From the NCBI GenBank assembly GCA_964387595.1, contig CAYLYF010000005.1, positions 2,220-66,219 of the forward strand: 64,000 bases of DNA, read 5' to 3'. Below are positions 4,809 through 61,685 of the stretch, piece after piece. Every line of letters begins with the position of its first letter. Position 1 is the stretch's first letter. The notes under the pieces were generated by a model. The model did not search any database, had not been told where the DNA came from, and saw nothing but the letters and a program-made list of their open reading frames with translations. The position numbers and the translations under genes were made by a program. This DNA is from an uncultured Thermodesulfobacteriota bacterium (GTDB lineage: Bacteria; Desulfobacterota; WTBG01; CAIYCZ01; CAIRTM01).

Positions 4809-6203
4809 TTAATTGACGTCTGCTTTGCTCACGGAAGCTAATTCCTCGTTAATTTTCCGGCTTGATATTATTAACCATATGGCCAGAAGGACATCAGCCG
4901 CGCCCTTCAGTCCAAAAGCCCAGCCGGGTCCAAGAACATCATACAAATAACCGCCAAGCTGAAGAAACAGGAGCATCCCGATAGGCTGCATCGTGTTTAA
5001 GCCCCCCAGAATAGAACCCAGCATTGCCTTGGGTGTAACATCCGTTGCCATGGTATTTGCACCTGCAATTGAGCCGGAGATTCCAAAAGCAACAATCACC
5101 ACAGTGGCCATAACCAGTCCGGAAAACGGTCCGGAAGAGACAGAAATGATCAACATACCCGTCCCGCCCAGAAAAAGAGTTAAAATAATTGTTTTTAATC
5201 TACCCCATTTGTCAAGCAGTATACCAATAATCGGAAACGCTAAAAAAGTAAAAACACTCATTATGATCATGGGTATAGACCCTTTAAGCGTGGCAGTCTC
5301 AGAGGTTAACCCCAGTTTCGCGCCATCCTGCACAGCCCAGGCAATGATAAATGTTGCCATTATCGTGATGTCCGCGCGGCTGATAAAGGAGCACAGATAA
5401 CTTGACTTTAAAGTCGGGCTTTTCATAACCACCTGCATCACTTCTTTAAAACTTTTCTGGTCTTCTTTTTTAGTCTCTGGCATACGGTCTTTTAAAAAGA
5501 GCCAGGTTGAAAGCAGACCAAAAGCTGCCATGATCGCTGCAACAATAAAAAGTCCTGAAACCCCGCTTTTGCGTCCGATCGGTGCGACCGCTGCAAAAAT
5601 AATAATACTGGCCAGCCCCATCATCATACCGTTTAAGGCCATGGCCTTACCACGGTCTTTTTTAAAGGTATAATCAGCACACATGGTAATAAACTGCGGA
5701 TAGACCAGGATCATCCCCACACCTACTAAAAGTCTTAGGATATAAGCTACAAAAAGACCCGGTGAAAAAGCAATAAACTCTGCCGCTCTGGACGGAGCAA
5801 AGCTCAAGTAAGCACAAAAAGTTGAAGAAAATCCTTCTGAGATGTTCAGCCATTCGGCAATGGCAACAGACTGACCGAAAGCATAATAGGAAAAAATAAG
5901 AGAGAAAAATCCGATAACCGCCAGTATCTTACGGCCGACCTTATCAGAGAGTACCCCCACCATGGCCACAAACGCCAGGGTTGCGATCTGGCTCATATTC
6001 TGCAAAAAACCGTTTATTGAACCAAAAAAGTCTGGAGCAACTTTAATAATATCCTGAAGAAATGCCGGCTGAATAATCGCAGGCATAACCATCAGCATTC
6101 CCATGATCAGGGTATTTAAGTAAAGAAAGAAAAAATTAGCTTTGGTCAGATCCGGTGCCACTTCAATTCCGGCAAACTTAGATACCTTCTGTTCTTCGCT
6201 CAT
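4809..6203 (-). CDS. MFS transporter
   Basis: 464 aa, about 12 hydrophobic segments; MFS motif A in both halves (GVLSDKVGRK, GILLDKWGRL). Confidence 0.9.
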   Translation of the reverse strand: MSEEQKVSKFAGIEVAPDLTKANFFFLYLNTLIMGMLMVMPAIIQPAFLQDIIKVAPDFFGSINGFLQNMSQIATLAFVAMVGVLSDKVGRKILAVIGFFSLIFSYYAFGQSVAIAEWLNISEGFSSTFCAYLSFAPSRAAEFIAFSPGLFVAYILRLLVGVGMILVYPQFITMCADYTFKKDRGKAMALNGMMMGLASIIIFAAVAPIGRKSGVSGLFIVAAIMAAFGLLSTWLFLKDRMPETKKEDQKSFKEVMQVVMKSPTLKSSYLCSFISRADITIMATFIIAWAVQDGAKLGLTSETATLKGSIPMIIMSVFTFLAFPIIGILLDKWGRLKTIILTLFLGGTGMLIISVSSGPFSGLVMATVVIVAFGISGSIAGANTMATDVTPKAMLGSILGGLNTMQPIGMLLFLQLGGYLYDVLGPGWAFGLKGAADVLLAIWLIISSRKINEELASVSKADVN

Positions 6204-21239: not shown

Positions 21240-22778
21240 TTGACAAATATTAAGATAAACAGCCAGTTTAAAAGTGCACTTAAACTGATTAAAAATTCAA
21301 ATGAATCCGTATTTATTACAGGAAAAGCAGGCACAGGCAAATCAACTTTTCTTCAATATGCACGCCGGAACATAAAAAAAAACATGGTTGTTCTTGCACC
21401 TACCGGTGTTGCAGCGCTTAATGTTAAAGGTGAGACAATCCATTCTTTTTTTCATTTTAAACCCGGAATCACACCCAAGGATGCGGAAAAAAAAGCTAAG
21501 AAAAATATTGATAATGCTCTATACAAAAAGATTGATACCATCCTGATCGATGAGATCTCAATGGTCAGAGCGGACCTGCTGGACTGCATTGATACATTTT
21601 TAAGAACCTTTCTGAACAGCGATCAACCTTTTGGCAATATCCAGATGGTGTTTATCGGCGACCTGTATCAGCTGCCGCCTGTGGTGACAAACCATGAAAG
21701 GGAAATGTTCAGTAAATATTACGAATCACCTTTCTTTTTCTCGGCAAATGTAATTATAAAAGATAAATTTAAATATCACTATGTCGAACTTGAAGAAATA
21801 TACCGTCAGAAGGATGATCATTTCATTGAGATCTTAAATGCTGTCCGAAACAATTCTGCAACTGCAAAACATTTTGAATATATAAACAGAAATGTCATTG
21901 ATGACCAATTCGAAGAGGACCAGGGCTTTATTTTCTTAACGACTCTGAACCGGAGCGCCGACGAAATAAACGCTTATAAGCTTTCAGCCTTAAGCACAAA
22001 ACTGTTTATTTCAAAAGCAGAAATAGACGGTGAATTTGAGCTTAACGCTGCACCCACTTCAGTTAAGCTGGCTTTAAAACCGGGGGCCCAGGTTATGTTT
22101 TTAAATAATCATTCTGACGGACTCTGGGTTAACGGTACCGTAGGCATCATTGAAGAAATAGATAATTCAGAAATATTTGTCAGAACTGATAATAATCTGG
22201 TTGTATCAGTAAATAAGCACAAATGGTCTCTTTACAAATACATATACGATTCAGAAAACAAGAACCTTATCCAGGAAAAAACAGGGGATTTTCTTCAGTA
22301 TCCGTTAAAACTTGCATGGGCAATAACTATACATAAAAGCCAGGGGAAAACATTTAAAAAAGCAATCATTGATCTTAAAAACGGTACTTTTGCACATGGA
22401 CAGTCCTATGTAGCACTCAGTCGATGTGTTTCTCTAAATGGGATCGGACTTGTTCATCCGCTAAAGAAGAACCACATTAAAACCGACCATAGAATAATAA
22501 ATTATTTAACAAAACTTCAATATGACGCGGCAGAAGACAGATGCCCGACAGCTGATAAAATCAAGATCCTAAAAGATGCAATTAATAAAAAGAGCTTAAT
22601 TAATATTGTTTATTTAAAGCCAAACGACCATAAATCCACCCGCACGATCAAACCATTTTTCCTTGGCGAAAAAAAATACAGGGACAATAAATACATTGGA
22701 CTGGATGCTTACTGCATGAAAGATAATACAGACAGGATCTTTAGAATTGACAGAATACTTGAGATAAATGAAAAGTAA
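21240..22778 (+). CDS. Pif1/RecD-like SF1B helicase with C-terminal WYL domain
   Basis: 512 aa. ITGKAGTGKST, LAPTGVAA, IDEISMV, GDLYQLPPV, YRQ, QYPLKLAWAITIHKSQG, GQSYVALSRC; C-terminal IVYLK..STRTIKP..LDAYCMKDNTDRIFRIDRI (WYL). Confidence 0.9.
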   Translation: MTNIKINSQFKSALKLIKNSNESVFITGKAGTGKSTFLQYARRNIKKNMVVLAPTGVAALNVKGETIHSFFHFKPGITPKDAEKKAKKNIDNALYKKIDTILIDEISMVRADLLDCIDTFLRTFLNSDQPFGNIQMVFIGDLYQLPPVVTNHEREMFSKYYESPFFFSANVIIKDKFKYHYVELEEIYRQKDDHFIEILNAVRNNSATAKHFEYINRNVIDDQFEEDQGFIFLTTLNRSADEINAYKLSALSTKLFISKAEIDGEFELNAAPTSVKLALKPGAQVMFLNNHSDGLWVNGTVGIIEEIDNSEIFVRTDNNLVVSVNKHKWSLYKYIYDSENKNLIQEKTGDFLQYPLKLAWAITIHKSQGKTFKKAIIDLKNGTFAHGQSYVALSRCVSLNGIGLVHPLKKNHIKTDHRIINYLTKLQYDAAEDRCPTADKIKILKDAINKKSLINIVYLKPNDHKSTRTIKPFFLGEKKYRDNKYIGLDAYCMKDNTDRIFRIDRILEINEK

Positions 22779-37335: not shown

Positions 37336-39114
37336 TTAGTCCTGCTTTAATAGTAGCGCAGTAATATACCTGTTGTCAATCGCTTCATTTGCATTAAAAC
37401 TTTTAAGTTCATCAGAAAGCAGATTAAAAGACTCCTCAAGAAAACGTTTAAAAGAACTCAAATCCGGGTCATTAAGCTCAAAACTATCTATTACCCAGTT
37501 AAACGCCTCTTCTTTAACAGCCTTTTTAATAAATATATCCTTATTGTCTGAGGGCTCAAAAGCTGTTTTAAGAAATTTTATAATATCCTTATTTGTCAAA
37601 GGATCAGGCCGTGAAATGCCCTTACAGATATTATTTACCAGCATTGTATTAAAAAGAGACATGCAGGATACAGGATTATTCTCATATGCAATACCAGACC
37701 CCGTACCTTCATTTATATATAATTCAGGATCAAGTTCGAAAAATTCAAACAACAGTCTGTTGGAAAATACAAAATCAAGAACTGATTCTTCTGTTCTTCT
37801 AACTTCATAAATACTTTTAAAATCCCTGAATGTTATTAAACCCTTTTCACCAAGACCTTCAAAATATTGGGGCCTTGCTTCAAGCAGCCCGGATATTACC
37901 TCTGCGGTCTTTGAATCTGCAAAGGAAATAAACTGTTCTCCATCCTTCTTTATTTGATCCTTGAGTCGGTTTTTCAGTTTTAAACCGGATGAATAGCCAA
38001 TCCGGAAAAGCTCTCCAGGATGAAGAGAGGTTAACAAATCAGATGCTTTTGAGATATCTTCACCTGATAATATCTCAAGACCGATATTAATATAAGCCTC
38101 AACCTTTTCAATTGCCTTTTTCTGGTCATCAATATCCCTGACCTCAAGACAATCCGCTATGATAACCTTGTTTGCAAGGTTTATAATATTTTTCTGGACA
38201 TCATGGAGCACAGCCGCATCTGAAATATGCTTAACTGCAAAGGAAAAAAAGGTCGGGGAAGCATCAATTGCAAGCAGATACCTGAACCCTGAACTATTCT
38301 CAGGCCCTGCAGCTGTTTTCTTACTGAATTTTTCCCTTAATTTTTCGATATCCCTGTCAGAAACAAACTGATAGACTTCCAGCGCTTCATCTATTTCAGG
38401 AAAACCTTTTTCAGACATCCTGACCTGCCGCCAGCGGAACGCATCCTCATCAGACTCGGCAGTAAATTCATATAAAATCGCATTGATCAATGAATAGAAA
38501 AAGCTGCTGTCATACCTGTATAAAACGCCCAGAAGCGGCATCAAAACCAGCTTGGTATCCTCATCTACAAACTGAAAATAATATACATTATCAAAGGTAT
38601 CATTGGGCATATCTTCATATTCCTCAAGAATATCCGATTCTTCCTCAAGTTTGAATATACCCATAAAGCGTTTTAAGGTTGAGATTAAAAATCTTTCATC
38701 CGCATTTTCAAACCATTCAACAACTTTTGTCTCATTACATTTACCCAGAAGAATATACCATTCCGCAATATTATTAAAATCGATTTGATCCCTGTTCCAG
38801 CAATCCACATCAATTAAGTATTGAAACTGATCATGCGTTGTCCGGGATATGATTGCAAGAGAATCCGACCTGCCCCTCTCCTTAATCGTCCAGTAGAGCT
38901 CTTCTTCCGGAAGATCCTGAACAAGGGCCTTTGGATCATCCGACATTAAAATAAGGTCCATTCGGTCTTTAAAAGGTGCTCTGATTACGAGTGCAGCTCT
39001 TTTCTCATGAGACAGGCTGTTAAACACCTTCTCTGCTGAATCCTGCGGCAGCTTTAAAAGCTTTTCAGATGAAATATTTTTAATATCAGCAATATCTGTG
39101 ATTTTTTGAGACAT
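37336..39114 (-). CDS. DUF6178-like protein
   Basis: 592 aa. LVQDLPEEELYWTIKERG..QFQYLIDVDCW, FRWRQVRMSEKGFP, LFRIGYS match my recollection of this deltaproteobacterial family. Confidence 0.6.
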   Translation of the reverse strand: MSQKITDIADIKNISSEKLLKLPQDSAEKVFNSLSHEKRAALVIRAPFKDRMDLILMSDDPKALVQDLPEEELYWTIKERGRSDSLAIISRTTHDQFQYLIDVDCWNRDQIDFNNIAEWYILLGKCNETKVVEWFENADERFLISTLKRFMGIFKLEEESDILEEYEDMPNDTFDNVYYFQFVDEDTKLVLMPLLGVLYRYDSSFFYSLINAILYEFTAESDEDAFRWRQVRMSEKGFPEIDEALEVYQFVSDRDIEKLREKFSKKTAAGPENSSGFRYLLAIDASPTFFSFAVKHISDAAVLHDVQKNIINLANKVIIADCLEVRDIDDQKKAIEKVEAYINIGLEILSGEDISKASDLLTSLHPGELFRIGYSSGLKLKNRLKDQIKKDGEQFISFADSKTAEVISGLLEARPQYFEGLGEKGLITFRDFKSIYEVRRTEESVLDFVFSNRLLFEFFELDPELYINEGTGSGIAYENNPVSCMSLFNTMLVNNICKGISRPDPLTNKDIIKFLKTAFEPSDNKDIFIKKAVKEEAFNWVIDSFELNDPDLSSFKRFLEESFNLLSDELKSFNANEAIDNRYITALLLKQD

Positions 39115-40111
39115 TTTGGAAATAACCTTCTTTTCTATACCAGTCTACGGTGCTTTTAACCACGTGCTTTAATGGCGTCTGAGGAATACCGAGTTCTTTA
39201 ACCGCTTTTGTAAAGTCCACCCTCTTTTTAGCTGAAAGCACCCGGATATTTGCAGGAGTCGCAACCGGTTCCTTCTTGGTTATATAATCAGAAACAGCTG
39301 TAATTAAAACAGCCCAGGCCAAAGCCATAAAACGGGGTGATTTCATGAACGGCGCCCTTACGCTGCCTTCATCTGCAATCAATTTAAAAATTTCTTTCAT
39401 AGTCGCAAAATTTTCGACGCATCCCAGGTTATAGGACTCGCCTTTCCCCCCTTTTTCCATGGCCAGCAGATGACCGGCAACAACATCATTGATCCCGACC
39501 ACATCTATACCGCCGTCAAAATAAGAAGGCATTCTTCCTTTGATGATATCAATCACCAGCTTACCGGACGGCGTGGGATAGATATCGCCCTCACCCATGA
39601 CCATGGCAGGTCTGACAATAACAGCATTTAGCCCCTTTTCAACAGACTCAAATACAACTTTTTCAGCTTCATATTTAGAGATCTCATAAGGTGCTTTTAA
39701 ATAGTGAAGGTTAAACTCTATATCTTCTGCAGATGGCTTTCCGTCCGGCCTGATCCCAAGAGCTGCAATGGAACTGGTATGGACAACCTTTTCAACACCA
39801 GATTCAAGAGCTGCCTGCATGACATTTCGGGTACCTTCAACATTCACCTTTATCAGCTGATCATAATCACGCATCCATGTCCTGTATAAGCCTGCTACAT
39901 GATAAACATGGGTACAGCCGTCTACAGCTTTATCAATAGATTCCCGGTCATTAATATCAGCTTCAAAAATTTCAGCATCAAGACCTTCGATGTTCTTTCT
40001 GCTGCTTGCCTTCCTGACCGTTATCCTTACTTTTTCATTCCGGTTTAAAAGTTCCTTTACAATCGCTGATCCCAGAAAGCCGGTTGCGCCGGTAACTAAT
40101 ATTTTTTTCAA
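39086..40111 (-). CDS. NAD-dependent epimerase/dehydratase (HpnA/dihydroflavonol reductase-like)
   Basis: LVTGATGFLG, YHVAGLY, HTSSIAALG, YEISK, DVVAGH. Confidence 0.88.
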   Translation of the reverse strand: MKKILVTGATGFLGSAIVKELLNRNEKVRITVRKASSRKNIEGLDAEIFEADINDRESIDKAVDGCTHVYHVAGLYRTWMRDYDQLIKVNVEGTRNVMQAALESGVEKVVHTSSIAALGIRPDGKPSAEDIEFNLHYLKAPYEISKYEAEKVVFESVEKGLNAVIVRPAMVMGEGDIYPTPSGKLVIDIIKGRMPSYFDGGIDVVGINDVVAGHLLAMEKGGKGESYNLGCVENFATMKEIFKLIADEGSVRAPFMKSPRFMALAWAVLITAVSDYITKKEPVATPANIRVLSAKKRVDFTKAVKELGIPQTPLKHVVKSTVDWYRKEGYFQNVSKNHRYC

Positions 40112-40296
40112 TATAAGCTCCTAAAACTAAGATTTATAATGTTTTATATTAATTTAATGTTTTTAACTGAGCTATTTATCTTATAATTATATACTGCTCT
40201 ATTAACAAAGACAAACTATTATTGCCGCAGCAAAACATCCTTAACTATTTGATGATCACAGAGAGCAGCAGCAGCAGGCTGTCCGGTGACAGCCTC

Positions 40297-42006
40297 CTAG
40301 AGCTTTTCAAAGGCTGAAAGCTTTTTAATGCCGATTTTCATGGGAAGCAAAAATACCAGAATGTTTATAAATAATACAAGGCCAAAATGTATTGACACAC
40401 TCACCCATTGTGATGAGGACACCGGAACATTGGTAAACTCAGACATCATAAAATAATACACCGGTCTTGCTTCCAGAACGACAATTGAACCGATAAAAAG
40501 CATTGACAGGATCATAAACAAAAGGCCTCCAAAACCGGTTGGGATCTGGGCAATATTTTCAATTTTAAAACGGGGATAAGACGCTCCGCATCCGATACCC
40601 AGACTTGTAATCCCGAAGGTCATTAAAAATATAGTTACTGCCGAAACAGCCATCATCATTGTATCAACCTTTAACAGGTAATTTGTAAAAATGATCAAAA
40701 TCTCTGACATCACCACAAGAAATATAAAGTTCACCCAAAACTTGCACCATAAAAACCTTTTTAACCCCATAGGGGATGATTTAATTATCCAGAAAGCATC
40801 CCCCTCAAGACTGACAGCCGGATAAGCAAACCTCACAGCAACAGCAGAAATAACGAAACCGGCCAGGCCCAGGTTTATAAATGAAATAATGTTCTGTAGA
40901 TAAACCGTTGGAAGAGGGTTTTTTTCCATCGGGAGAACACTGATATTATACAAATAAATAACAATGATCGCCAAAAGGATAAAAATCTGTGACCACTGAG
41001 CAGTGTCTCTAAAAAAGATCTTTATGTCTTTTTCAACAATAGACCTGCCAGGTGGAGACATTGGAAATAAAATGAGATCCAGCACCTTGTTGAAAAATCT
41101 GTTAATTGATATCGCTGCCGTTTTTCCTTCCTGAGTTTTATTCCAGGCATCATAAAAAACAGCGTTAAAGACCCAGCCGAGCATCACCGTAAAAGCAAGT
41201 GCTGTACTCCATAAAAGGAGCATATTAAAAACGGCCGTACCCGGCACCTTATCAAAAAGCATTGATGACAAAATATCCGTCACCCACTGACTGGGCAGAA
41301 AAGGGGATGTGGGTGCTTTAAGAGCGGAAAGATAATCTATTACCGTAAAAAATTTATCCGGGTCAACAAGTCTCTCCGGTTTTAAAAAACGAAACATAAA
41401 ATATACAATAATAACAAAGAATATTGTTATCAGAAAGAGCACGTCTTTAAGTCTTTTTGCAGGAAAATATTTGACCAGCGCCATGGCAACTCCGATCCCG
41501 AGAGTACCGCAGATAACAACAAACGGAAGACCGGAAAATATCAAAAAAACATAATACGAAAAGTTCTGTTCATAGATTATCCCATATGAAATAAACACAG
41601 GCAGACTGAACATGAGTACCATCCAGGAACTGTTGAAAATAGTTTCAGTCAGTTTTGAGAAATAAAGGTCAGCATAATTAAAAGGCGTGGAGATGATCAG
41701 TTGAAGCTCTTCTGAAATAAAAAAAGAAGAGATGGCAGTTATCACATTACTGAAAATTAAAATAGAAAAGAAAGTTAGAAATACCATTGAAAGGAGTTTG
41801 GCCGCAAGAAAATCTCCGAAAACTTCAATACCCTTGAAATAAGTAAGCACCCTGAAAAAAACAATAAAAAGACCGGCCCAGAACGCAAGACCGAAACCCA
41901 CCATCAAAAACGCCTTGGTATAAGAACCTTCACCTTTAAATTTTATCCTGTTTTTTAATTGCGTGATCTTTGGGTATAAAAGACCCAGACTGTTATTAAT
42001 CATCAA
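40297..42006 (-). CDS. Putative ABC-2-type transporter permease
   Basis: 569 aa polytopic membrane protein immediately downstream of the ABC ATPase. EKDIKIFFRD, SLEGDAFWI. Confidence 0.8.
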   Translation of the reverse strand: MMINNSLGLLYPKITQLKNRIKFKGEGSYTKAFLMVGFGLAFWAGLFIVFFRVLTYFKGIEVFGDFLAAKLLSMVFLTFFSILIFSNVITAISSFFISEELQLIISTPFNYADLYFSKLTETIFNSSWMVLMFSLPVFISYGIIYEQNFSYYVFLIFSGLPFVVICGTLGIGVAMALVKYFPAKRLKDVLFLITIFFVIIVYFMFRFLKPERLVDPDKFFTVIDYLSALKAPTSPFLPSQWVTDILSSMLFDKVPGTAVFNMLLLWSTALAFTVMLGWVFNAVFYDAWNKTQEGKTAAISINRFFNKVLDLILFPMSPPGRSIVEKDIKIFFRDTAQWSQIFILLAIIVIYLYNISVLPMEKNPLPTVYLQNIISFINLGLAGFVISAVAVRFAYPAVSLEGDAFWIIKSSPMGLKRFLWCKFWVNFIFLVVMSEILIIFTNYLLKVDTMMMAVSAVTIFLMTFGITSLGIGCGASYPRFKIENIAQIPTGFGGLLFMILSMLFIGSIVVLEARPVYYFMMSEFTNVPVSSSQWVSVSIHFGLVLFINILVFLLPMKIGIKKLSAFEKL

Positions 42007-56596: not shown

Positions 56597-56658
56597 AGCA
56601 TTTTCATAACGTGTAACCGTTGCGCAGCAAAAGGCTGAAGCGGTACAATCAAAAAGTC

Positions 56659-56771
56659 AAATTTCAAAGTTCAAATGCCAAATGAATGACAAAAAAGAAA
56701 AAAGGATAAAAGGGTTTGGCCTTGGTGTTTTTCAGTTTTATTTGATATTTTTAATTTGAACTTTGAAATTT
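56659..56771. repeat. 18-bp perfect inverted repeat element between convergent genes
   Basis: AAATTTCAAAGTTCAAAT (56659-56676) and ATTTGAACTTTGAAATTT (56754-56771), with internal CAAAT/TTTG sub-repeats. Confidence 0.8.
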
Positions 56772-56856
56772 CATTTTAATTCATTTAAATCGTTCAATCC
56801 GTTCAAACTGTTCTTGAGGCTACAATATTAAAAATATTACTCTTACATAAAACCTT

Positions 56857-57909
56857 TTAAGCACACTGACTCAAATCCCATTCATTTTTTAATCCTCTCA
56901 ACCCAAACATGACCTTCAGGATCTCAGTCGCCTGAGCTCTGTTCACGGGATAACCGCCGCGCGAAAGCATCTCAAAACCTTCAAGCGCTGATTCAATCGC
57001 GCAATCTATCACTGAAGAAGCTGAGTTTGGATACGTTAAGCTGAAATTTGCATTTTCTTCATTTGCCGACTGTGTAATATCTGAGAGTGTCTTTAACCCA
57101 TCCTCCTCTTTGTAAATTATCCAGCTGGTAAAATAATTTATTTTATTATTTAAAATATCATCACCAATATCTGTCAGATCATCCAGCATCTGCAGCGCAT
57201 TACCAATATAAAGAATACCGGATTCCATGCAGATCAGACTTTCACGCTTATCCGTTTCAGCTTCAAGAGGAGCAATCAAAGCCAGCCTTAAAAGTTCACC
57301 GCCGATCTTTTGATGAATGGTCTCAGTTATTTCTTCGGGACGGGGCATGATATCAGTAAGCTTGGTAACCGATTCCCCTTTACCGATCGAACAGATACTG
57401 TCGAGTATACGGCTCTCAATATCATCAGCCAGCGAACCATTATTTGTCAGCTCTCTTATTGACTGGCCCATCACCCGATAGGAAAGAAGGGAAAGCATGG
57501 TGTTATTCAGTATAAGATTATCAAGCCCGGCGTTTAAAAAAACCGGCCCCTTACTTTCTGAATCAAGGATATTGTCTGTACAGGTAATAATAATACGGAG
57601 GGAATGCAGGACCATTCCGTAAAGCATAATCCTGTCATAGGGAATCTTTAATGATTTAAAAATACTTAAAAAAAGTATGCTGAAAAAGTTTTTTTCAAAA
57701 TACTTAATAGAATTTAAGTTCTGAAACGGCCGGTCGATCCTGCTGCCCGAATCACACTGGGCAAGTTTTTGAGAAAACAGCTCCTCAACCTGTCTATGCT
57801 CTGCATATGCAGCGGCAAAAAGTTTGATCAGTGAAGGCTGTGAGATCCCTATTTTCATCAGTGATGATATTTTTGAAAAAAAATCAAGTCCAATTAATTT
57901 CATATTCAT
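56857..57909 (-). CDS. Class I isoprenoid synthase/prenyltransferase-fold protein
   Basis: First Asp-rich motif variant TDNILD, KIGGEL (KTG-like), GNALQMLDDLTD second motif, KINY. Confidence 0.7.
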   Translation of the reverse strand: MNMKLIGLDFFSKISSLMKIGISQPSLIKLFAAAYAEHRQVEELFSQKLAQCDSGSRIDRPFQNLNSIKYFEKNFFSILFLSIFKSLKIPYDRIMLYGMVLHSLRIIITCTDNILDSESKGPVFLNAGLDNLILNNTMLSLLSYRVMGQSIRELTNNGSLADDIESRILDSICSIGKGESVTKLTDIMPRPEEITETIHQKIGGELLRLALIAPLEAETDKRESLICMESGILYIGNALQMLDDLTDIGDDILNNKINYFTSWIIYKEEDGLKTLSDITQSANEENANFSLTYPNSASSVIDCAIESALEGFEMLSRGGYPVNRAQATEILKVMFGLRGLKNEWDLSQCA

Positions 57910-59921
57910 CCCTTCTGAATTAAATTAATTTTAGAAAGTAATGGCGGTACAACAGCCAGCGATAGTATAAGACAAAAGATCATACCGAACATTGCAGCAA
58001 GTCCCAACTCTCTAAAACCGGGATTTACCGCAAACAACAGACTTCCAAAAGCTGCGCAGGAAGTAATACTTGTGGCGGTTATCGGGCTGCTTATACCGGA
58101 AAGAGCCCGGTTTATATTTCCATTTTCTTCTTTGCTTCTCCACAGCATATGTACGCCGTCATCTATCCCGGCTCCGATGACCAGCGGAAGCACAACCATT
58201 GTCATTAAGCTAAAATTAATATTTAAAATACCCATCAAACCCGAGGTAAAGATTAGAGACACAAAAACAGGAACAAGGGCAACGACAGTCAATTTTAGAT
58301 CCCTGAAAAACAAGGTCGTGATTATAGCAATCAAAAAAAACGCGGTTAATGAACATCTTAAAAGATCCGACTTAATCGTCTCATTCAAAGATGAATTCAG
58401 AAAGGCCGAACCTGTCACAAAATTACCGGAGTCTGAAAAAGATTGATTTATTCTATCGGCCAATGATCTTATTTTATTAAAGCCATCAGGTTTAAAAGGA
58501 TTAGTACTGCCGTAAATATAGGTTACCAAAGAGCCGTCCAACCCCACAAAGTCTTCCGGATCCCGGCCGGTATACGCGGCCAGAGAGTAACTCTGTATAA
58601 AGGAAATATCATCAAAAGTATTATTAACCAGAAAATCCAGTTTATCCTTTTCAGTTTTATCGTTTGGTGAAATAACCGCAGCCGGAACAGGAAAAAATTT
58701 ATAATTGCTTAGTAGCTTTGATTGAAGCGAAAAAGAGCTCAGGTCCTGGTCAAGAAGACTGTTCTGGTCCGCAGTAAAACGTACGGACAATGCAAAGGGA
58801 ATAGATGTAAGCAATATTAATAATATAACACAATAAAGAATAACAGCACGTTTCTTAAAGGTATTAAAAATAGCGGACCATAAAGAATCTAAACCTTTTA
58901 TGGGAGCAAACTGTTTAAGCTTAAAAAAGCTTAAAAACACCGGAAGAAAAATATAAGCGGATAAAAACATAATCATGATTCCTGCAGCACCGACCATGCC
59001 CAGTTCAAACAAACCGTCTGAATCTGCAGCCGTAAGCGCAATAAATGCGCCTGCAGTTGTAATCGCTCCAATAGCCATGGGCTTAACCGTCTTTTTATAA
59101 ACATAAGAGATCAGGGATGTTTTTTGAAATAATGCATCAGAGCAGGCAGATGAATTTATTATGGATGAGGCTTTTTCATTAAAAGAATAGATGATATGGA
59201 GACAGTAATCCACACCCAAACCGAGTAAAACAGCAGGTAAGGCAGCTGTCATAAAAGTCAAACGGTCAAATAATATTTCCGCAAACCATAAAGTTACAAA
59301 AAGTCCAAGAAATATTGTTAGCATGGATGCAAGGACAACTGAAAATGGGATCTTAATCATGATCAGCAGTATAAAAGCAATCGCTAAAAAGGTAATTACT
59401 GCTGACCGCATCATATCCTTTGTAATTGAATCCGCAGTTTCTAAAACGACCTGATAGCTGCCGGTGATACCGACTGTTATCCCCTGCTCTTCGGCAGCAT
59501 TCCGGATAGCTTTGGTCATGATCCTGCTCTGTGCCATGTCCGTGGGCTTAAAATCCGGGGTTAACAATATAACAGCGCTTTTAGTCTTCGGTCCATTTAC
59601 TTCTGTATTCACCGGAGGGCTGTACAAAACTACATTATCAACTGATCTTAATTGTTTTAAACGTCCCACTAAAATATCAAGGGCTCTTTCTTCTTTGTTA
59701 TTGTTATCTGCAACAACAACAAACGAATCAGAGCCCTTAAAATTATCAGTGTAATATTTATACTGCTTGACTACAGGATCGTCCTGGTTCAGGAGATCGA
59801 TCAGATCTCCCTCAACCTTCAGGTCAAGGACATTCAGGACAGCGGTTAATAAAATTAGGATATAAACTAAAACAAGCAGGTAACGTCGGGTATAAACAAT
59901 ATTTACAATTGCATTATTCAA
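57906..59921 (-). CDS. MMPL/RND-family lipid transporter
   Basis: 671 aa with two TM repeats. ITGSYQV, GLGVDYCLH, GAITTAGAF, GAGIDDGVH, TSCAAFGSL. Confidence 0.88.
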   Translation of the reverse strand: MNNAIVNIVYTRRYLLVLVYILILLTAVLNVLDLKVEGDLIDLLNQDDPVVKQYKYYTDNFKGSDSFVVVADNNNKEERALDILVGRLKQLRSVDNVVLYSPPVNTEVNGPKTKSAVILLTPDFKPTDMAQSRIMTKAIRNAAEEQGITVGITGSYQVVLETADSITKDMMRSAVITFLAIAFILLIMIKIPFSVVLASMLTIFLGLFVTLWFAEILFDRLTFMTAALPAVLLGLGVDYCLHIIYSFNEKASSIINSSACSDALFQKTSLISYVYKKTVKPMAIGAITTAGAFIALTAADSDGLFELGMVGAAGIMIMFLSAYIFLPVFLSFFKLKQFAPIKGLDSLWSAIFNTFKKRAVILYCVILLILLTSIPFALSVRFTADQNSLLDQDLSSFSLQSKLLSNYKFFPVPAAVISPNDKTEKDKLDFLVNNTFDDISFIQSYSLAAYTGRDPEDFVGLDGSLVTYIYGSTNPFKPDGFNKIRSLADRINQSFSDSGNFVTGSAFLNSSLNETIKSDLLRCSLTAFFLIAIITTLFFRDLKLTVVALVPVFVSLIFTSGLMGILNINFSLMTMVVLPLVIGAGIDDGVHMLWRSKEENGNINRALSGISSPITATSITSCAAFGSLLFAVNPGFRELGLAAMFGMIFCLILSLAVVPPLLSKINLIQKG

Positions 59922-60582
59922 ATCCGCTTCCTGTCATTACAATATGAAATTTAATTTCGACTTCATTTGAAGTCCTGAAAAAAAGTAAAGATGGATTTTT
60001 AATCTCATAATCCTGTAAGAACAGACTCAATTCTCCATCCAGAATTATTCTGCCGGCACTGGTACTTAATTTACCTAGGATTGAAACTGTTTTTTTTACG
60101 CCGTGAATCGTCAGATCACCGTTGATATTTAACAGGGTAAATAAATCAGGATCAGAACGCTCATTTACATTAAATGGTTTTTCAGAAGCAAAGGATAAAA
60201 GATCAAAAGTAATATCAGGATATTTTTTAACATGTAAAAACTTCTTTTTCATCCTCTTATCACGGGCTTTATCCTTTGTATCCAAAGCCTTTGCGTCAAT
60301 TCTTATACTGCTGTCCGCATTTAAAAGATCACCGGTTTTAGAAAAAAAGGCAGAGACCGATCCTTCAATTTTTTCAGGGCTGCCTAAAGTATCATGGACA
60401 TTACCCTTTAGAAAAAAAGTAAGCCATGAAGTTTCATTGTCTATCTGCAGAGTTACTTTTCGAGGGATATTTACAGACGCGGCCGCAGACTTTAGTTTCT
60501 GCGCGGAAAGTCCGGCAGGAACTAATAAACAGAGTAAAAGAATTGCGGATAGTTTAATTTTGCATATTAAATTGTTATTCAT
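59914..60582 (-). CDS. YceI-family lipid/isoprenoid-binding protein
   Basis: Signal peptide; IDAKALDTK..RDKRM, KYPDITF, GDLTIHGVKK, DYEI. Confidence 0.9.
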   Translation of the reverse strand: MNNNLICKIKLSAILLLCLLVPAGLSAQKLKSAAASVNIPRKVTLQIDNETSWLTFFLKGNVHDTLGSPEKIEGSVSAFFSKTGDLLNADSSIRIDAKALDTKDKARDKRMKKKFLHVKKYPDITFDLLSFASEKPFNVNERSDPDLFTLLNINGDLTIHGVKKTVSILGKLSTSAGRIILDGELSLFLQDYEIKNPSLLFFRTSNEVEIKFHIVMTGSGFE

Positions 60583-60605
60583 ATTATACCAATACAATTT
60601 TATGA

Positions 60606-60920
60606 TTAATTTGTCACTGCAAATCTTTTTCTATCATTTAATTCACCGCGTTTACCCGGGTTCCAGCTGCTGGTCTTGGTAAAATAACCGGTTATCCGGG
60701 TGATTCCTTCAACCAGCAGTCCCCTGTTAATCTCCTGCATAAGATCATCAGATGACATCTCATCGATCTTCCAGTATTTTATTGCAGTTTTCCTGTTTTC
60801 ATCATTACGGTACCATTCAACATGGATATTTCTAAAACATAACTGCTCATTTTCAATATCATCAAACCATTCAACACTAGTATTATCTTCTAAAAAATTA
60901 TTAAGTTCCTGTTTAGTCAT
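60606..60920 (-). CDS. Stand-alone NrdD-type C-terminal glycyl-radical domain protein
   Basis: 104 aa ending ITRITGYFTKTSSWNPGKRGELNDR, the class III ribonucleotide reductase glycyl-radical motif. Confidence 0.75.
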   Translation of the reverse strand: MTKQELNNFLEDNTSVEWFDDIENEQLCFRNIHVEWYRNDENRKTAIKYWKIDEMSSDDLMQEINRGLLVEGITRITGYFTKTSSWNPGKRGELNDRKRFAVTN

Positions 60921-60975: not shown

Positions 60976-61392
60976 TTAAATGCAGTCTATACAGACACCA
61001 TTTAACTGAATCTGATCTGTAAAAACAGTCGCAATCTTAAACCCCTCCGGAATTTTGATCTCAGGCAGCATGACATCATGTAAATCGATTATTTTTTTAC
61101 ATTTAACACATATAAAATGATGATGCGGTGCAGCATTACCATCAAACCTACCCAGATTTGTAAGATTATTTATTTTCTGTATAATGCCGTACTTCACAAA
61201 AGTCTCCAGATTCAAATAAATAGTATTCATTGAAAGACTGGGATAATCCTCTTTAAGATTTTTATAGATCAGGTCAGCACCGGGATGATCTGTACGCGAC
61301 ATCAACTCTTTTAAAATTGCTATTCTCTGAGTTGTGGGTTTTAGCCCTGTTCCCCTGATTTTTTCAGCAATTTGATGATTTGTTAATTTCAT
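60976..61392 (-). CDS. perR: Fur-family regulator, PerR-like
   Basis: QRIAIL, HPGADLIY, RFDGN..HHHFICVKC..IID, CIDC. Confidence 0.75.
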   Translation of the reverse strand: MKLTNHQIAEKIRGTGLKPTTQRIAILKELMSRTDHPGADLIYKNLKEDYPSLSMNTIYLNLETFVKYGIIQKINNLTNLGRFDGNAAPHHHFICVKCKKIIDLHDVMLPEIKIPEGFKIATVFTDQIQLNGVCIDCI

Positions 61393-61407
61393 ATTACCTC
61401 CTTATAA

Positions 61408-61422
61408 TAGTATTTATTACTA
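61408..61422. promoter_or_regulatory. Candidate autoregulatory Fur/PerR-type palindrome
   Basis: TAGTA-TTTAT-TACTA, lying between a TTGACA -35 (minus strand, 61434-61439) and the GGAGG RBS of the PerR-like gene. Confidence 0.4.
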
Positions 61423-61685
61423 ATTAGGAAACATGTCAAGTTTTTTTACAGATATTGTGTTTTTTTATTTGCCATTACAACATCTGGTAGAAATTGACAA
61501 TCATAATCCTTTTAAAAATATAAAGGGAATATAAAGTAATATACCTATAAAATATAATTTGTAGCCATTTTAACAGTGACAAAGAAGACCGTAGCGGGAA
61601 ACATAAAAATGATTAAATCCTGAATAAACCATACATAATTTATAAAATCCGGAGTTAAGCTGGAAATTCTCATATTTAATTTGAA

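Follow-up and report, generated by a model that had tools for sequence, protein, structure and literature searches.

Here we describe a group of genes on the minus strand of a 64,000-nucleotide stretch of DNA from an uncultured Thermodesulfobacteriota bacterium (contig CAYLYF010000005.1; the whole stretch is called the window below), in which a protein resembling isoprenoid synthases is encoded together with an MMPL transporter and a YceI lipocalin. These are the last three genes of a probable five-gene operon, and sequence comparisons and predicted structures make it, in our judgement, somewhat probable that they constitute a module that makes and exports an uncharacterised isoprenoid lipid. 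A first-pass annotation, made from the letters alone, had placed the three genes one after another, and the list of open reading frames (ORFs) gives the same minus-strand coordinates: 56857-57909 for the synthase-like gene (350 aa, or 348 aa from the alternative start Met3), 57906-59921 for the transporter (671 aa, TTG start) and 59914-60597 for the lipocalin (227 aa from a TTG start, with a probable start at ATG 60582 that gives 222 aa). Matches to PF03176 and PF04264 confirm the latter two as MMPL and YceI.

Judged by its AlphaFold2 (AF2) model (pLDDT 91.7, pTM 0.90), the cytoplasmic 350-aa protein is built on the class-I isoprenoid-synthase fold that is typical of trans-prenyl diphosphate synthases. 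The 50 best Foldseek matches of this model in the PDB are all trans-isoprenyl diphosphate synthases (trans-IPPS; probability 1.00, TM-score 0.45-0.6, 12-20 % identity) and include no terpene cyclase, so that the choice between a terpene cyclase and a trans-isoprenyl diphosphate synthase (IDS), which had been left to structure comparison, resolves to an IDS-like and not a cyclase-like protein. An index of 5.8 billion proteins yielded 82 homologs, mostly unnamed, and a profile built from the alignment of 66 of them recovers GGPPS, FPPS and OPPS chains in the PDB at E values of 2e-7 to 1e-4; PF00348 is touched weakly by 36 of these 66 members (best E 3.3e-7). Model and profile together bear out the isoprenoid-synthase fold that the first-pass annotation had proposed. 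An exhaustive hidden Markov model (HMM) search with the family profile across 1.84 billion representative proteins returned 353 matches at E<=1e-3 and 162 at E<=1e-30, and no canonical IPPS reached the threshold. By these profile searches, the protein belongs to a small, sharply bounded and previously undescribed family. All 53 matches in GTDB species genomes come from metagenome-assembled genomes (MAGs), with hosts in Desulfobacterota, Nitrospirota, Planctomycetota, Ilyobacter, Omnitrophota and Euryarchaeota.

The active-site residues of this family are strikingly constant. A variant first Asp-rich motif (FARM), DNILD, and a canonical second one (SARM), QMLDDLTD, had been read from the window, and both are present in the translation and nearly absolute across the 204 family members in which conservation was counted. 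The first, D112-N113-I-L-D116-S-E118, lies at 57576-57556 of the minus strand, within TCTDNILDSE at 57585-57556; the second, Q240-M-L-D243-D244-L-T-D247-I-G-D-D251, which is followed by the lysine of a GK pair and a conserved Asn (K256-I-N258), occupies 57192-57136 and reads LQMLDDLTDIGDD at 57195-57157. In the first motif, D112 and D116 are found in 204 of 204 members, N113 in 202, and E118 and K120 in 193 each; in the second, D244 and D251 are found in all 204, Q240 and D243 in 203, and D247 and N258 in 202. Since four of the aspartates (D112, D116, D244 and D251) are invariant and the other key residues are kept in 202-203 of 204 members, the motifs do not arise by chance. Conservation extends to R105 (192/204), T109 (196/204) and H199 (195/204), and the residues fixed specifically in this family are N113, E118, N74, F76, S77, Y97, R105, T109 and N258. 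The near-invariant signature can thus be written as DNxxDxExK … QxxDDxxDxxxD … N, and its D-N-D-E-K residues are carried by all 57 members whose gene neighbourhood could be classified.

To place these residues we used Escherichia coli IspA, whose sequence is identical to 1RQJ_A, as reference. An hhalign alignment pairs H199 with H178, L239-Q240 with F220-Q221, and D243/D244/D247 with D224/D225/D228, and lays LQMLDDLTD over FQVQDDILD. Near the first motif, the global hhalign alignment of the family with IspA had zero confidence and was replaced by a phmmer alignment of IspA with one family member (P0019), which pairs D116 with D90, the last Asp of the FARM, K120-G121 with R96-G97 of the RRG motif, and G-K256 with G-K237. 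Because D116 falls on the last FARM Asp, D112 and N113 correspond to FARM positions 1 and 2. The usual first motif, DDx(2-4)D, is not matched; of its aspartates, DNILD retains the first and the last. The second, (F)QxxDDxxD, is matched by Q240, D243, D244 and D247, each at least 99 % conserved. The canonical terpene synthase pair DDxxD and NSE/DTE is not matched either; in its place the family has DNxxD and a DDxxDxxxD with Asp at positions 5 and 9, which in NSE/DTE are filled by Ser/Thr and Glu. At the KT position the threonine is replaced by Gly, and a lysine stands at 201 in all members linked to an MMPL gene, whereas members linked to MacB have Lys or Arg at 202. The statement that the KT lysine is lost, which we had considered, holds for column 202 in the window's clade alone.

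By this mapping, the residues for the Mg2+ cluster and the allylic diphosphate (D112, D116, K120, K201, D243, D244, D247 and K256) appear to be retained, in roles that we take from general knowledge of FPPS structures. The side of the active site that would bind isopentenyl diphosphate (IPP) looks different. The first Arg of RRG falls in an alignment gap, and EK-N74-F-F76-S77 stands where GGKRxR would be expected, in an N-terminal region whose alignment is unreliable. That the second FARM position is almost always Asn suggests that selection has set the family apart in function from synthases that elongate.

The 671-aa protein encoded just upstream matches PF03176 in two stretches (1e-32, 113.8 bits vs a cutoff of 20.5) and, by its profile scores, is a short MMPL/RND lipid transporter of the HpnN/HAE3-like type. 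It matches the HpnN model TIGR03480 at 1e-51 and the HAE3 model TIGR00921 at 1e-45, and its nearest solved structure is HpnN (5KHN, 1e-17), followed by MmpL4. It falls outside HpnN proper, with 176 bits against a cutoff of 751.85 for TIGR03480 and 103 bits against 1100 for NF052374, and no hpn context is present among the scanned ORFs. The subfamily is narrow: nine clusters, the window's own included, share at least 45 % identity, and beyond them there are only partial matches of 22-33 %. Six of the nine could be placed on contigs, and all six contigs carry a synthase gene.

The third protein matches PF04264 (4.9e-21, 76.1 bits vs a cutoff of 23.7) and begins with a hydrophobic N-terminal signal peptide that ends AGLSA/QK. 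Its AF2 model (pLDDT 72) matches 18 YceI structures and nothing else significantly, with BcnA (5IXH) as the best structural match (1.4e-8, TM-score 0.75). Signal peptide and model thus identify it, at the level of prediction, as a secreted YceI-family lipocalin. Its subfamily comprises 13 clusters, several of which come from the same synthase-bearing contigs. Solved YceI proteins typically hold octaprenyl phosphate, octaprenylphenol or ubiquinone-8, and BcnA acts together with the cytochrome b561 LcoA to detoxify membrane-lipid peroxyl radicals (PMC9113575).

The three genes are tightly coupled. On longest-ORF coordinates, the synthase-like and MMPL genes overlap by 4 bp and the MMPL and YceI genes by 8 bp, as had been annotated; with alternative starts these figures do not stand, since gene calls on identical metagenome contigs begin the synthase at Met3 (348 aa), leaving a 2-bp gap to MMPL, and place the start of YceI five codons further downstream, at an ATG (222 aa). 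The exact overlaps hinge on the choice of start, whereas the tight coupling of the three genes does not. The first-pass annotation missed a probable upstream extension by two genes of the same strand, one for a stand-alone protein resembling the C-terminal glycyl-radical loop of NrdD (60606-60920, 104 aa) and one for a Fur-family PerR-like regulator (60976-61392), the first of the same-strand array. The PerR-like gene is separated from the NrdD-like gene by 55 bp and the latter from YceI by 8 bp, both have a strong ribosome-binding site, and no terminator-like site was found between the five same-strand genes. The transcription unit probably consists of all five, in the order PerR-like, NrdD-loop, YceI, MMPL and synthase-like. 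In the convergent intergenic region that separates the synthase gene from a CRP/FNR gene, a long imperfect inverted repeat (56653-56777; 125 nt, with 50-nt arms 74 % complementary, an RNA fold of -30.8 kcal/mol and z = -2.76) is probably a bidirectional terminator that marks the 3' end of the operon.

As regards canonical prenyl synthases, the initial annotation's statement that such context is missing from the window holds. The best tblastn match of IspA has an E value of 0.49, so no canonical prenyl synthase was detected, and the synthase-family HMM matches the 350-aa ORF alone. No hopanoid or sterol genes were found among the scanned window ORFs, in a scan that included no search aimed at squalene-hopene cyclase. 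An Rfam scan of the whole window gave no matches.

The gene neighbourhoods of relatives support a link between enzyme and exporter. With seed proteins and HMMs we examined about 80 loci (labelled L001 onwards), 57 of which could be classified by context. An MMPL gene adjoins the synthase in every relative of 41-100 % identity with enough flanking sequence, and in relatives of 55-100 % identity it lies directly upstream. YceI precedes MMPL in the window, in L073 (69 % identity), and in L065, L066 and L069 (57-58 %), so the trio does occur in other genomes, as the first-pass annotation would have led one to expect. L073 shares the entire neighbourhood of the window (Fur, NrdD-like, YceI, MMPL, synthase, CRP, MOSC, NifS, NifU and Hcp). 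Because L069 has an unrelated one, with TM_HPP upstream and phosphoesterase, GT2 and ArnT-like genes downstream, the trio is conserved beyond regional synteny. The YceI partner is confined to the window's clade, in these two unrelated neighbourhoods; L074 carries an unrelated secreted 220-aa protein in its place, which is degenerate in L001. In both of these loci, the synthase is followed on the same strand by genes for a multihaem cytochrome c and for a fusion of cytochrome b (Ni_hydr_CYTB) with cytochrome c3 domains (L074:8762-11820 and L001:7409-10368).

In more distant relatives (41-48 % identity, from Planctomycetota and others), further genes join MMPL and synthase. A gene for a UbiE-like methyltransferase usually stands between the two, though not in L013 and L014, and the synthase is followed by genes for a lipoprotein and for an Fe-S membrane protein of the NapH/NosR-like type. 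The lipoprotein family has no Pfam match (L002:8056-9806, L012, L013, L014, L075/L076, L022 and L054); its members share a lipobox with AGC/TGC, a KFLxQF…(I/V)TGAT core and a C-terminal transmembrane anchor, and in L002, L012, L013 and L075/L076 the next gene encodes the NapH/NosR-like 4Fe-4S membrane protein. Pfam detected no FMN_bind domain in this module. From its sequence features, the pair looks like a split NosR-like electron-transfer module that would face the periplasm. A relationship to MOSC, which we also considered, is unsupported, as the HMM match in L054 belongs to a 185-aa ORF upstream of the MOSC ORF.

In 29 of the 57 classified loci, all at 22-35 % identity, a MacB/FtsX permease and an ABC ATPase adjoin the synthase instead of MMPL. 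The typical order is a PEMT/ICMT-like membrane methyltransferase, the synthase, often the UbiE-like methyltransferase already met in the MMPL-linked loci, a MacB/LolCE-like permease and the ABC ATPase, and the genes usually overlap by a few bases. This type of operon recurs in about 30 loci (L004-L009 and L019-L063; for instance L008:6450-9965) from MAGs of Nitrospirota and Desulfobacterota, and we found no published description of a PEMT-synthase-MacB-ABC operon in the literature. No canonical IPPS gene was detected within about 8 kb of family members in the roughly 80 loci. A dedicated enzyme-transporter-carrier unit had been suggested for the window; the coupling of enzyme and exporter now appears stronger than was proposed, given the approximately 30 loci with MacB/ABC, while the carrier part holds for the nearest clade only.

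The most distant YceI relative on a long contig (L083:5082-10156, 35 % identity) has a CrtI-family desaturase on one side and, on the other, the same UbiE-like methyltransferase and MacB/ABC genes as in the synthase loci. The desaturase is a bona fide CrtI-family phytoene-type enzyme (460 bits vs a cutoff of 238), the methyltransferase gene seems to be split or frameshifted, and no synthase-family gene was found within about 7 kb. Through this one locus, the YceI subfamily is connected with carotenoid-type chemistry as well as with both types of exporter.

The genes at the head of the operon point to a regulatory context. The PerR-like protein matches PF01475 (7.8e-23, 81 bits vs a cutoff of 23), and its best NCBIfam model is NF052545 PerR (2.5e-31). 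Fur-family genes also lie beside the distant clusters L007, L008, L020 and L025. The AT-rich stretch 5' of the PerR-like gene (61393-61560) contains a perfect -35-like TTGACA at 61439-61434 and, within 61407-61423, an imperfect palindrome of 7-1-7 layout, TAGTAAT-A-AATACTA. A consensus -10 is missing at a distance of 16-18 nt from TTGACA, and a strong sigma-70 promoter of the form TTGACA-17-TATTAT, entertained at one point, was dropped because the actual spacing to TATTAT is 24 nt. The operator-like 17-mer has no second copy in the window and is only loosely conserved in L073, and the idea of a PerR-box regulon was abandoned on these two grounds. The 104-aa protein matches PF13597 (NRDD) over residues 70-100 (2.7e-7), and its RITGYFTKTSSWNPGKRGELNDRK aligns with the glycyl-radical loop of NrdD 8P23 (RITGY…WNPGK…EL.DR); the gene occupies the same position in L073, with 86 % identity. 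The protein is a candidate 'spare part' for a class III ribonucleotide reductase damaged by oxygen; to date, pyruvate formate-lyase is the only enzyme for which proteins of this kind have been validated (PMC8683613).

These observations lead us to the following model. No prenyl synthase is encoded nearby, and the synthase-like enzyme would ionise an allylic prenyl diphosphate drawn from the general pool and would carry out chemistry other than standard head-to-tail elongation, such as transfer to a non-IPP acceptor, irregular coupling, quenching or cyclisation. The hydrophobic product would arise in the inner membrane, from which MMPL, a pump driven by protons, would extract it, and the secreted YceI lipocalin would receive or carry it in the periplasm. 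Since a PerR-like repressor and an NrdD spare-part candidate head the operon and YceI proteins act in lipid-peroxidation defence, the module is most probably part of a peroxide/oxygen-stress response that protects the envelope. The Fur genes at distant clusters and the periplasm-facing redox modules in other clades, together with the peroxidation-defence role of YceI, suggest the same link.

Several points weigh against this proposal, in whole or in part. Searched alone, the 350-aa protein has no Pfam or NCBIfam match at E<=1, PF00348 included. YceI is absent from L074, L001 and all distant clusters, and about 16 family members, in Ilyobacter, archaea and others, are orphans with no exporter nearby; as a side observation, each of the archaeal orphans L010, L017 and L049 adjoins a PNPOx-like gene (split-barrel flavin/F420-binding). 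An association with CrtI does not generalise, being found in L083 alone. On the regulatory side, the PerR-like protein scores below the NCBIfam cutoff for the PerR label (108.5 bits vs 180), and promoter and operator are candidates only. No RNA runs containing the locus were found; the window's organism is abundant in salt-lake metagenomes, and the locus appears in salt-lake DNA metagenomes only. The IPP-binding motifs (GGKRxR and the first Arg of RRG) should be called not recognisable rather than absent, because the N-terminal alignment to IPPS is unreliable. Finally, 152 of 204 members have a basic residue (Lys or Arg) at position 73, and Q240 is retained, features that would be compatible with IPP elongation.

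This last point defines the main rival. The enzyme could be an ordinary, divergent chain-elongating trans-prenyl diphosphate synthase whose polyprenyl diphosphate product has a particular length, with YceI binding and MMPL moving a polyprenyl phosphate or a quinone-like derivative. Its nearest structures and profiles are indeed all elongating IPPS, its allylic site appears intact, 'geranylgeranyl pyrophosphate synthase' is the name that some sources give to members of the family, the soluble methyltransferase encoded in the same clusters resembles UbiE/MenG, and the solved YceI proteins contain octaprenyl phosphate or UQ-8 (PMC9113575). We nevertheless consider this reading unlikely. Against it stand the Asn that 202 of 204 members carry as the second FARM residue and the Gly in place of the KT threonine; neither GGKRxR nor the first Arg of RRG can be recognised; the family stands sharply apart from the very large IPPS family; and the window protein itself scores nothing against PF00348. 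No UbiA-type prenyltransferase was noted in the neighbourhoods, where no search was aimed at UbiA.

It is also conceivable that the genes are neighbours that share no pathway. MMPL and YceI would then handle a xenobiotic or some general lipid of the envelope, and the role of the synthase-like protein would be unrelated and possibly non-catalytic. The orphan members would fit such an arrangement, as would the promiscuity of YceI lipocalins, which bind antibiotics, Nile red and tocopherol (PMC9113575). We regard it as very unlikely in view of the translational coupling of overlapping or abutting genes, the persistence of the MMPL-synthase pair over 41-100 % identity in differing neighbourhoods, and the replacement of MMPL by a second exporter type in the same operon position at about 30 loci. 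The MMPL and YceI subfamilies are, moreover, small, with all close relatives on placeable contigs lying on synthase-bearing ones, and the invariant metal-binding residues argue for catalysis. A further alternative is that the family serves metal(loid) or chalcogen detoxification, for example through prenylated organo-arsenicals (arsenolipids) that are methylated and exported, with the window carrying a reduced version. In L008 and L056, ArsS (TIGR04167, 348 bits vs 300) is fused to an ArsM-like methyltransferase and followed by PEMT, synthase, MacB, ABC, MerT and MerA (495 vs 454 bits); L075 encodes an ArsP_1-type permease, of the organoarsenical efflux family, at 5161-6183, a few genes downstream of its MT-synthase-lipoprotein-NapH-like cluster; and the PEMT-like protein weakly resembles the methanethiol S-methyltransferase MddA. 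Yet, among the 29 loci classified as MacB-type by context, only 2 carry ArsS (or 3 among about 30 if L051, with a weak methyltransferase match at the fusion position, is counted), and the common stand-alone methyltransferase lacks the As(III)-binding Cys of ArsM, its sole conserved Cys lying in the SAM-binding GCGTG. The window operon has neither a methyltransferase nor arsenic or mercury genes, and ArsS/ArsM and MerTA may be an adjacent resistance island. We rejected arsenolipids as a general explanation on the missing ArsM cysteines, the rarity of ArsS and the lack of a methyltransferase in the window, and give the idea hardly any credence. Apart from this question, the arrangement in L008 (3932-11755) and L056 is worth recording, with a Fur gene and the 661-aa ArsS-ArsM fusion directly upstream of PEMT-synthase-MacB-ABC, and MerT and a bona fide MerA downstream; besides a neighbouring arsenic/mercury island, it may reflect a functional link.

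Returning to a make-and-export module for an isoprenoid lipid, a more far-reaching hypothesis can be formulated, which we hold tentatively and consider possible but doubtful. The family could represent a new catalytic class of IPPS-derived enzymes with non-elongating prenyl chemistry (irregular coupling or transfer to an acceptor other than IPP), and the isoprenoid lipid, tailored by PEMT-like and UbiE-like methyltransferases, exported via MMPL or MacB/ABC depending on the lineage and bound to YceI in the periplasm, could be a redox-active or sacrificial antioxidant that is re-reduced by the NosR-like or cytochrome modules and switched on through PerR. Such a system would be an anaerobe counterpart of the defence formed by ubiquinone, YceI and cytochrome b561.

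If our reading is correct, the module would provide a handle on an envelope lipid of widespread uncultured anaerobes (Desulfobacterota, Nitrospirota, Planctomycetota and some archaea), and the enzyme would be a new branch of the prenyl-synthase scaffold, one that genome mining with standard HMMs misses. The module would also show what a YceI lipocalin binds and works with physiologically where the organism has no ubiquinone, and would extend the logic of hopanoid and sterol trafficking (synthesis, RND pump and carrier) to another class of lipids. With just three genes and no need of others, it is suited to heterologous expression, with YceI as an affinity trap for the product.

Elsewhere in the window, a few features deserve mention. 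Upstream of the operon, the segment 61700-62412 has a higher G+C content than its surroundings and no intact long ORF, with overlapping ORFs of about 100 aa on both strands; one 102-aa ORF is called as a gene on identical contigs and has no Pfam match, and the region may be a gene remnant. The segment 18000-24000 has a G+C of 0.35 versus about 0.42 and may be a mobile or defence island; it includes, at 21240-22778 on the plus strand, a PIF1-like helicase fused to a WYL domain. At 37336-42006 on the minus strand, one gene array encodes a 592-aa protein that matches DUF6178 (2.8e-126) and a 569-aa protein that matches PF16949, 'putative ATP-binding cassette' (1e-123).

A search of the literature on YceI with MMPL and isoprenoids, on DNxxD with prenyl, and on PEMT/polyprenyl/ABC clusters found nothing relevant. 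What is new here is the enzyme family, its fixed DNxxDxE signature and its restriction to uncultured anaerobes, as well as the alternative MMPL and MacB exporters and the association with a PerR-like regulator and with a lipocalin of the YceI family. Known in kind is the combination of a lipid-synthesis gene, an RND pump and a periplasmic carrier, as in HpnN with hopanoids and BstABC with sterols.

Comparison with characterised enzymes places the family closest to the trans-IPPS (IspA/FPPS, GGPPS and OPPS). It shares with them the all-helical class-I fold, in which long helices carry the two Asp-rich motifs at their C-terminal ends, the SARM QxxDDxxD, the GK lysine, an Arg-Gly of RRG that corresponds to K120-G121, and a Lys at or near the KT position. 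It differs in having DNxxD with a fixed Asn, followed by the near-invariant E118, in the Gly that replaces the KT Thr, and in its genomic setting, since the genes belong to exporter operons and not to pathways for isoprenoids or quinones. Non-elongating enzymes derived from IDS are eukaryotic, recent offshoots that are still recognisable as FPPS or GGPPS by sequence, whereas the window family is prokaryotic and deeply divergent. A parallel with chrysanthemyl diphosphate synthase and with the insect and fungal IDS-like terpene synthases nonetheless exists: these combine an IPPS scaffold, altered Asp-rich motifs or second-substrate site, and irregular coupling or terpene-synthase chemistry (see PMC7484799). 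A D-N first motif is shared with the class ID terpene synthase PeuTPS, in whose D-(N/D) motif the Asn is experimentally essential and which ionises prenyl diphosphates in a Mg2+-dependent manner (PMC11234867); in both cases, a class-I-like helical fold is invisible to standard HMMs. Compared by published description, the two nevertheless differ in their other motifs and in their structural neighbours. Class ID enzymes have ND and RxxKD, about 194 aa and 49 aa downstream, and best resemble a plant terpene-synthase alpha-domain (PMC11234867); in the window family, DDxxDxxxD follows at a distance of 131 aa, and the resemblance is to IPPS. The class ID motifs ND and RxxKD are not conserved in the window family (R338, 124/204).

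At the level of the whole module, the closest parallels are HpnN and BstABC, in which an RND/MMPL inner-membrane pump is likewise encoded beside a lipid-biosynthesis gene and works with a periplasmic lipid-binding partner. The NCBIfam models for HpnN and BstA are the best or good matches for the window MMPL, far below their cutoffs (176 vs 752 and 83 vs 1400 bits), and the window pump is shorter, with 671 aa against about 860-900 aa. BstB and BstC are the periplasmic lipid carriers of BstABC sterol transport; the putative carrier in the window is instead a YceI lipocalin. The lipocalin itself invites comparison with the BcnA-LcoA system (PMC9113575), with which the window locus shares a secreted YceI lipocalin, a context of oxidative stress and an expected isoprenoid ligand, and other clades of the family carry periplasm-facing electron-transfer modules in their operons. 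The locus differs from that system in that its host is an anaerobe, in that the ligand is presumably not ubiquinone, and in that the place of cytochrome b561 is taken by a synthase-like enzyme and an MMPL pump.

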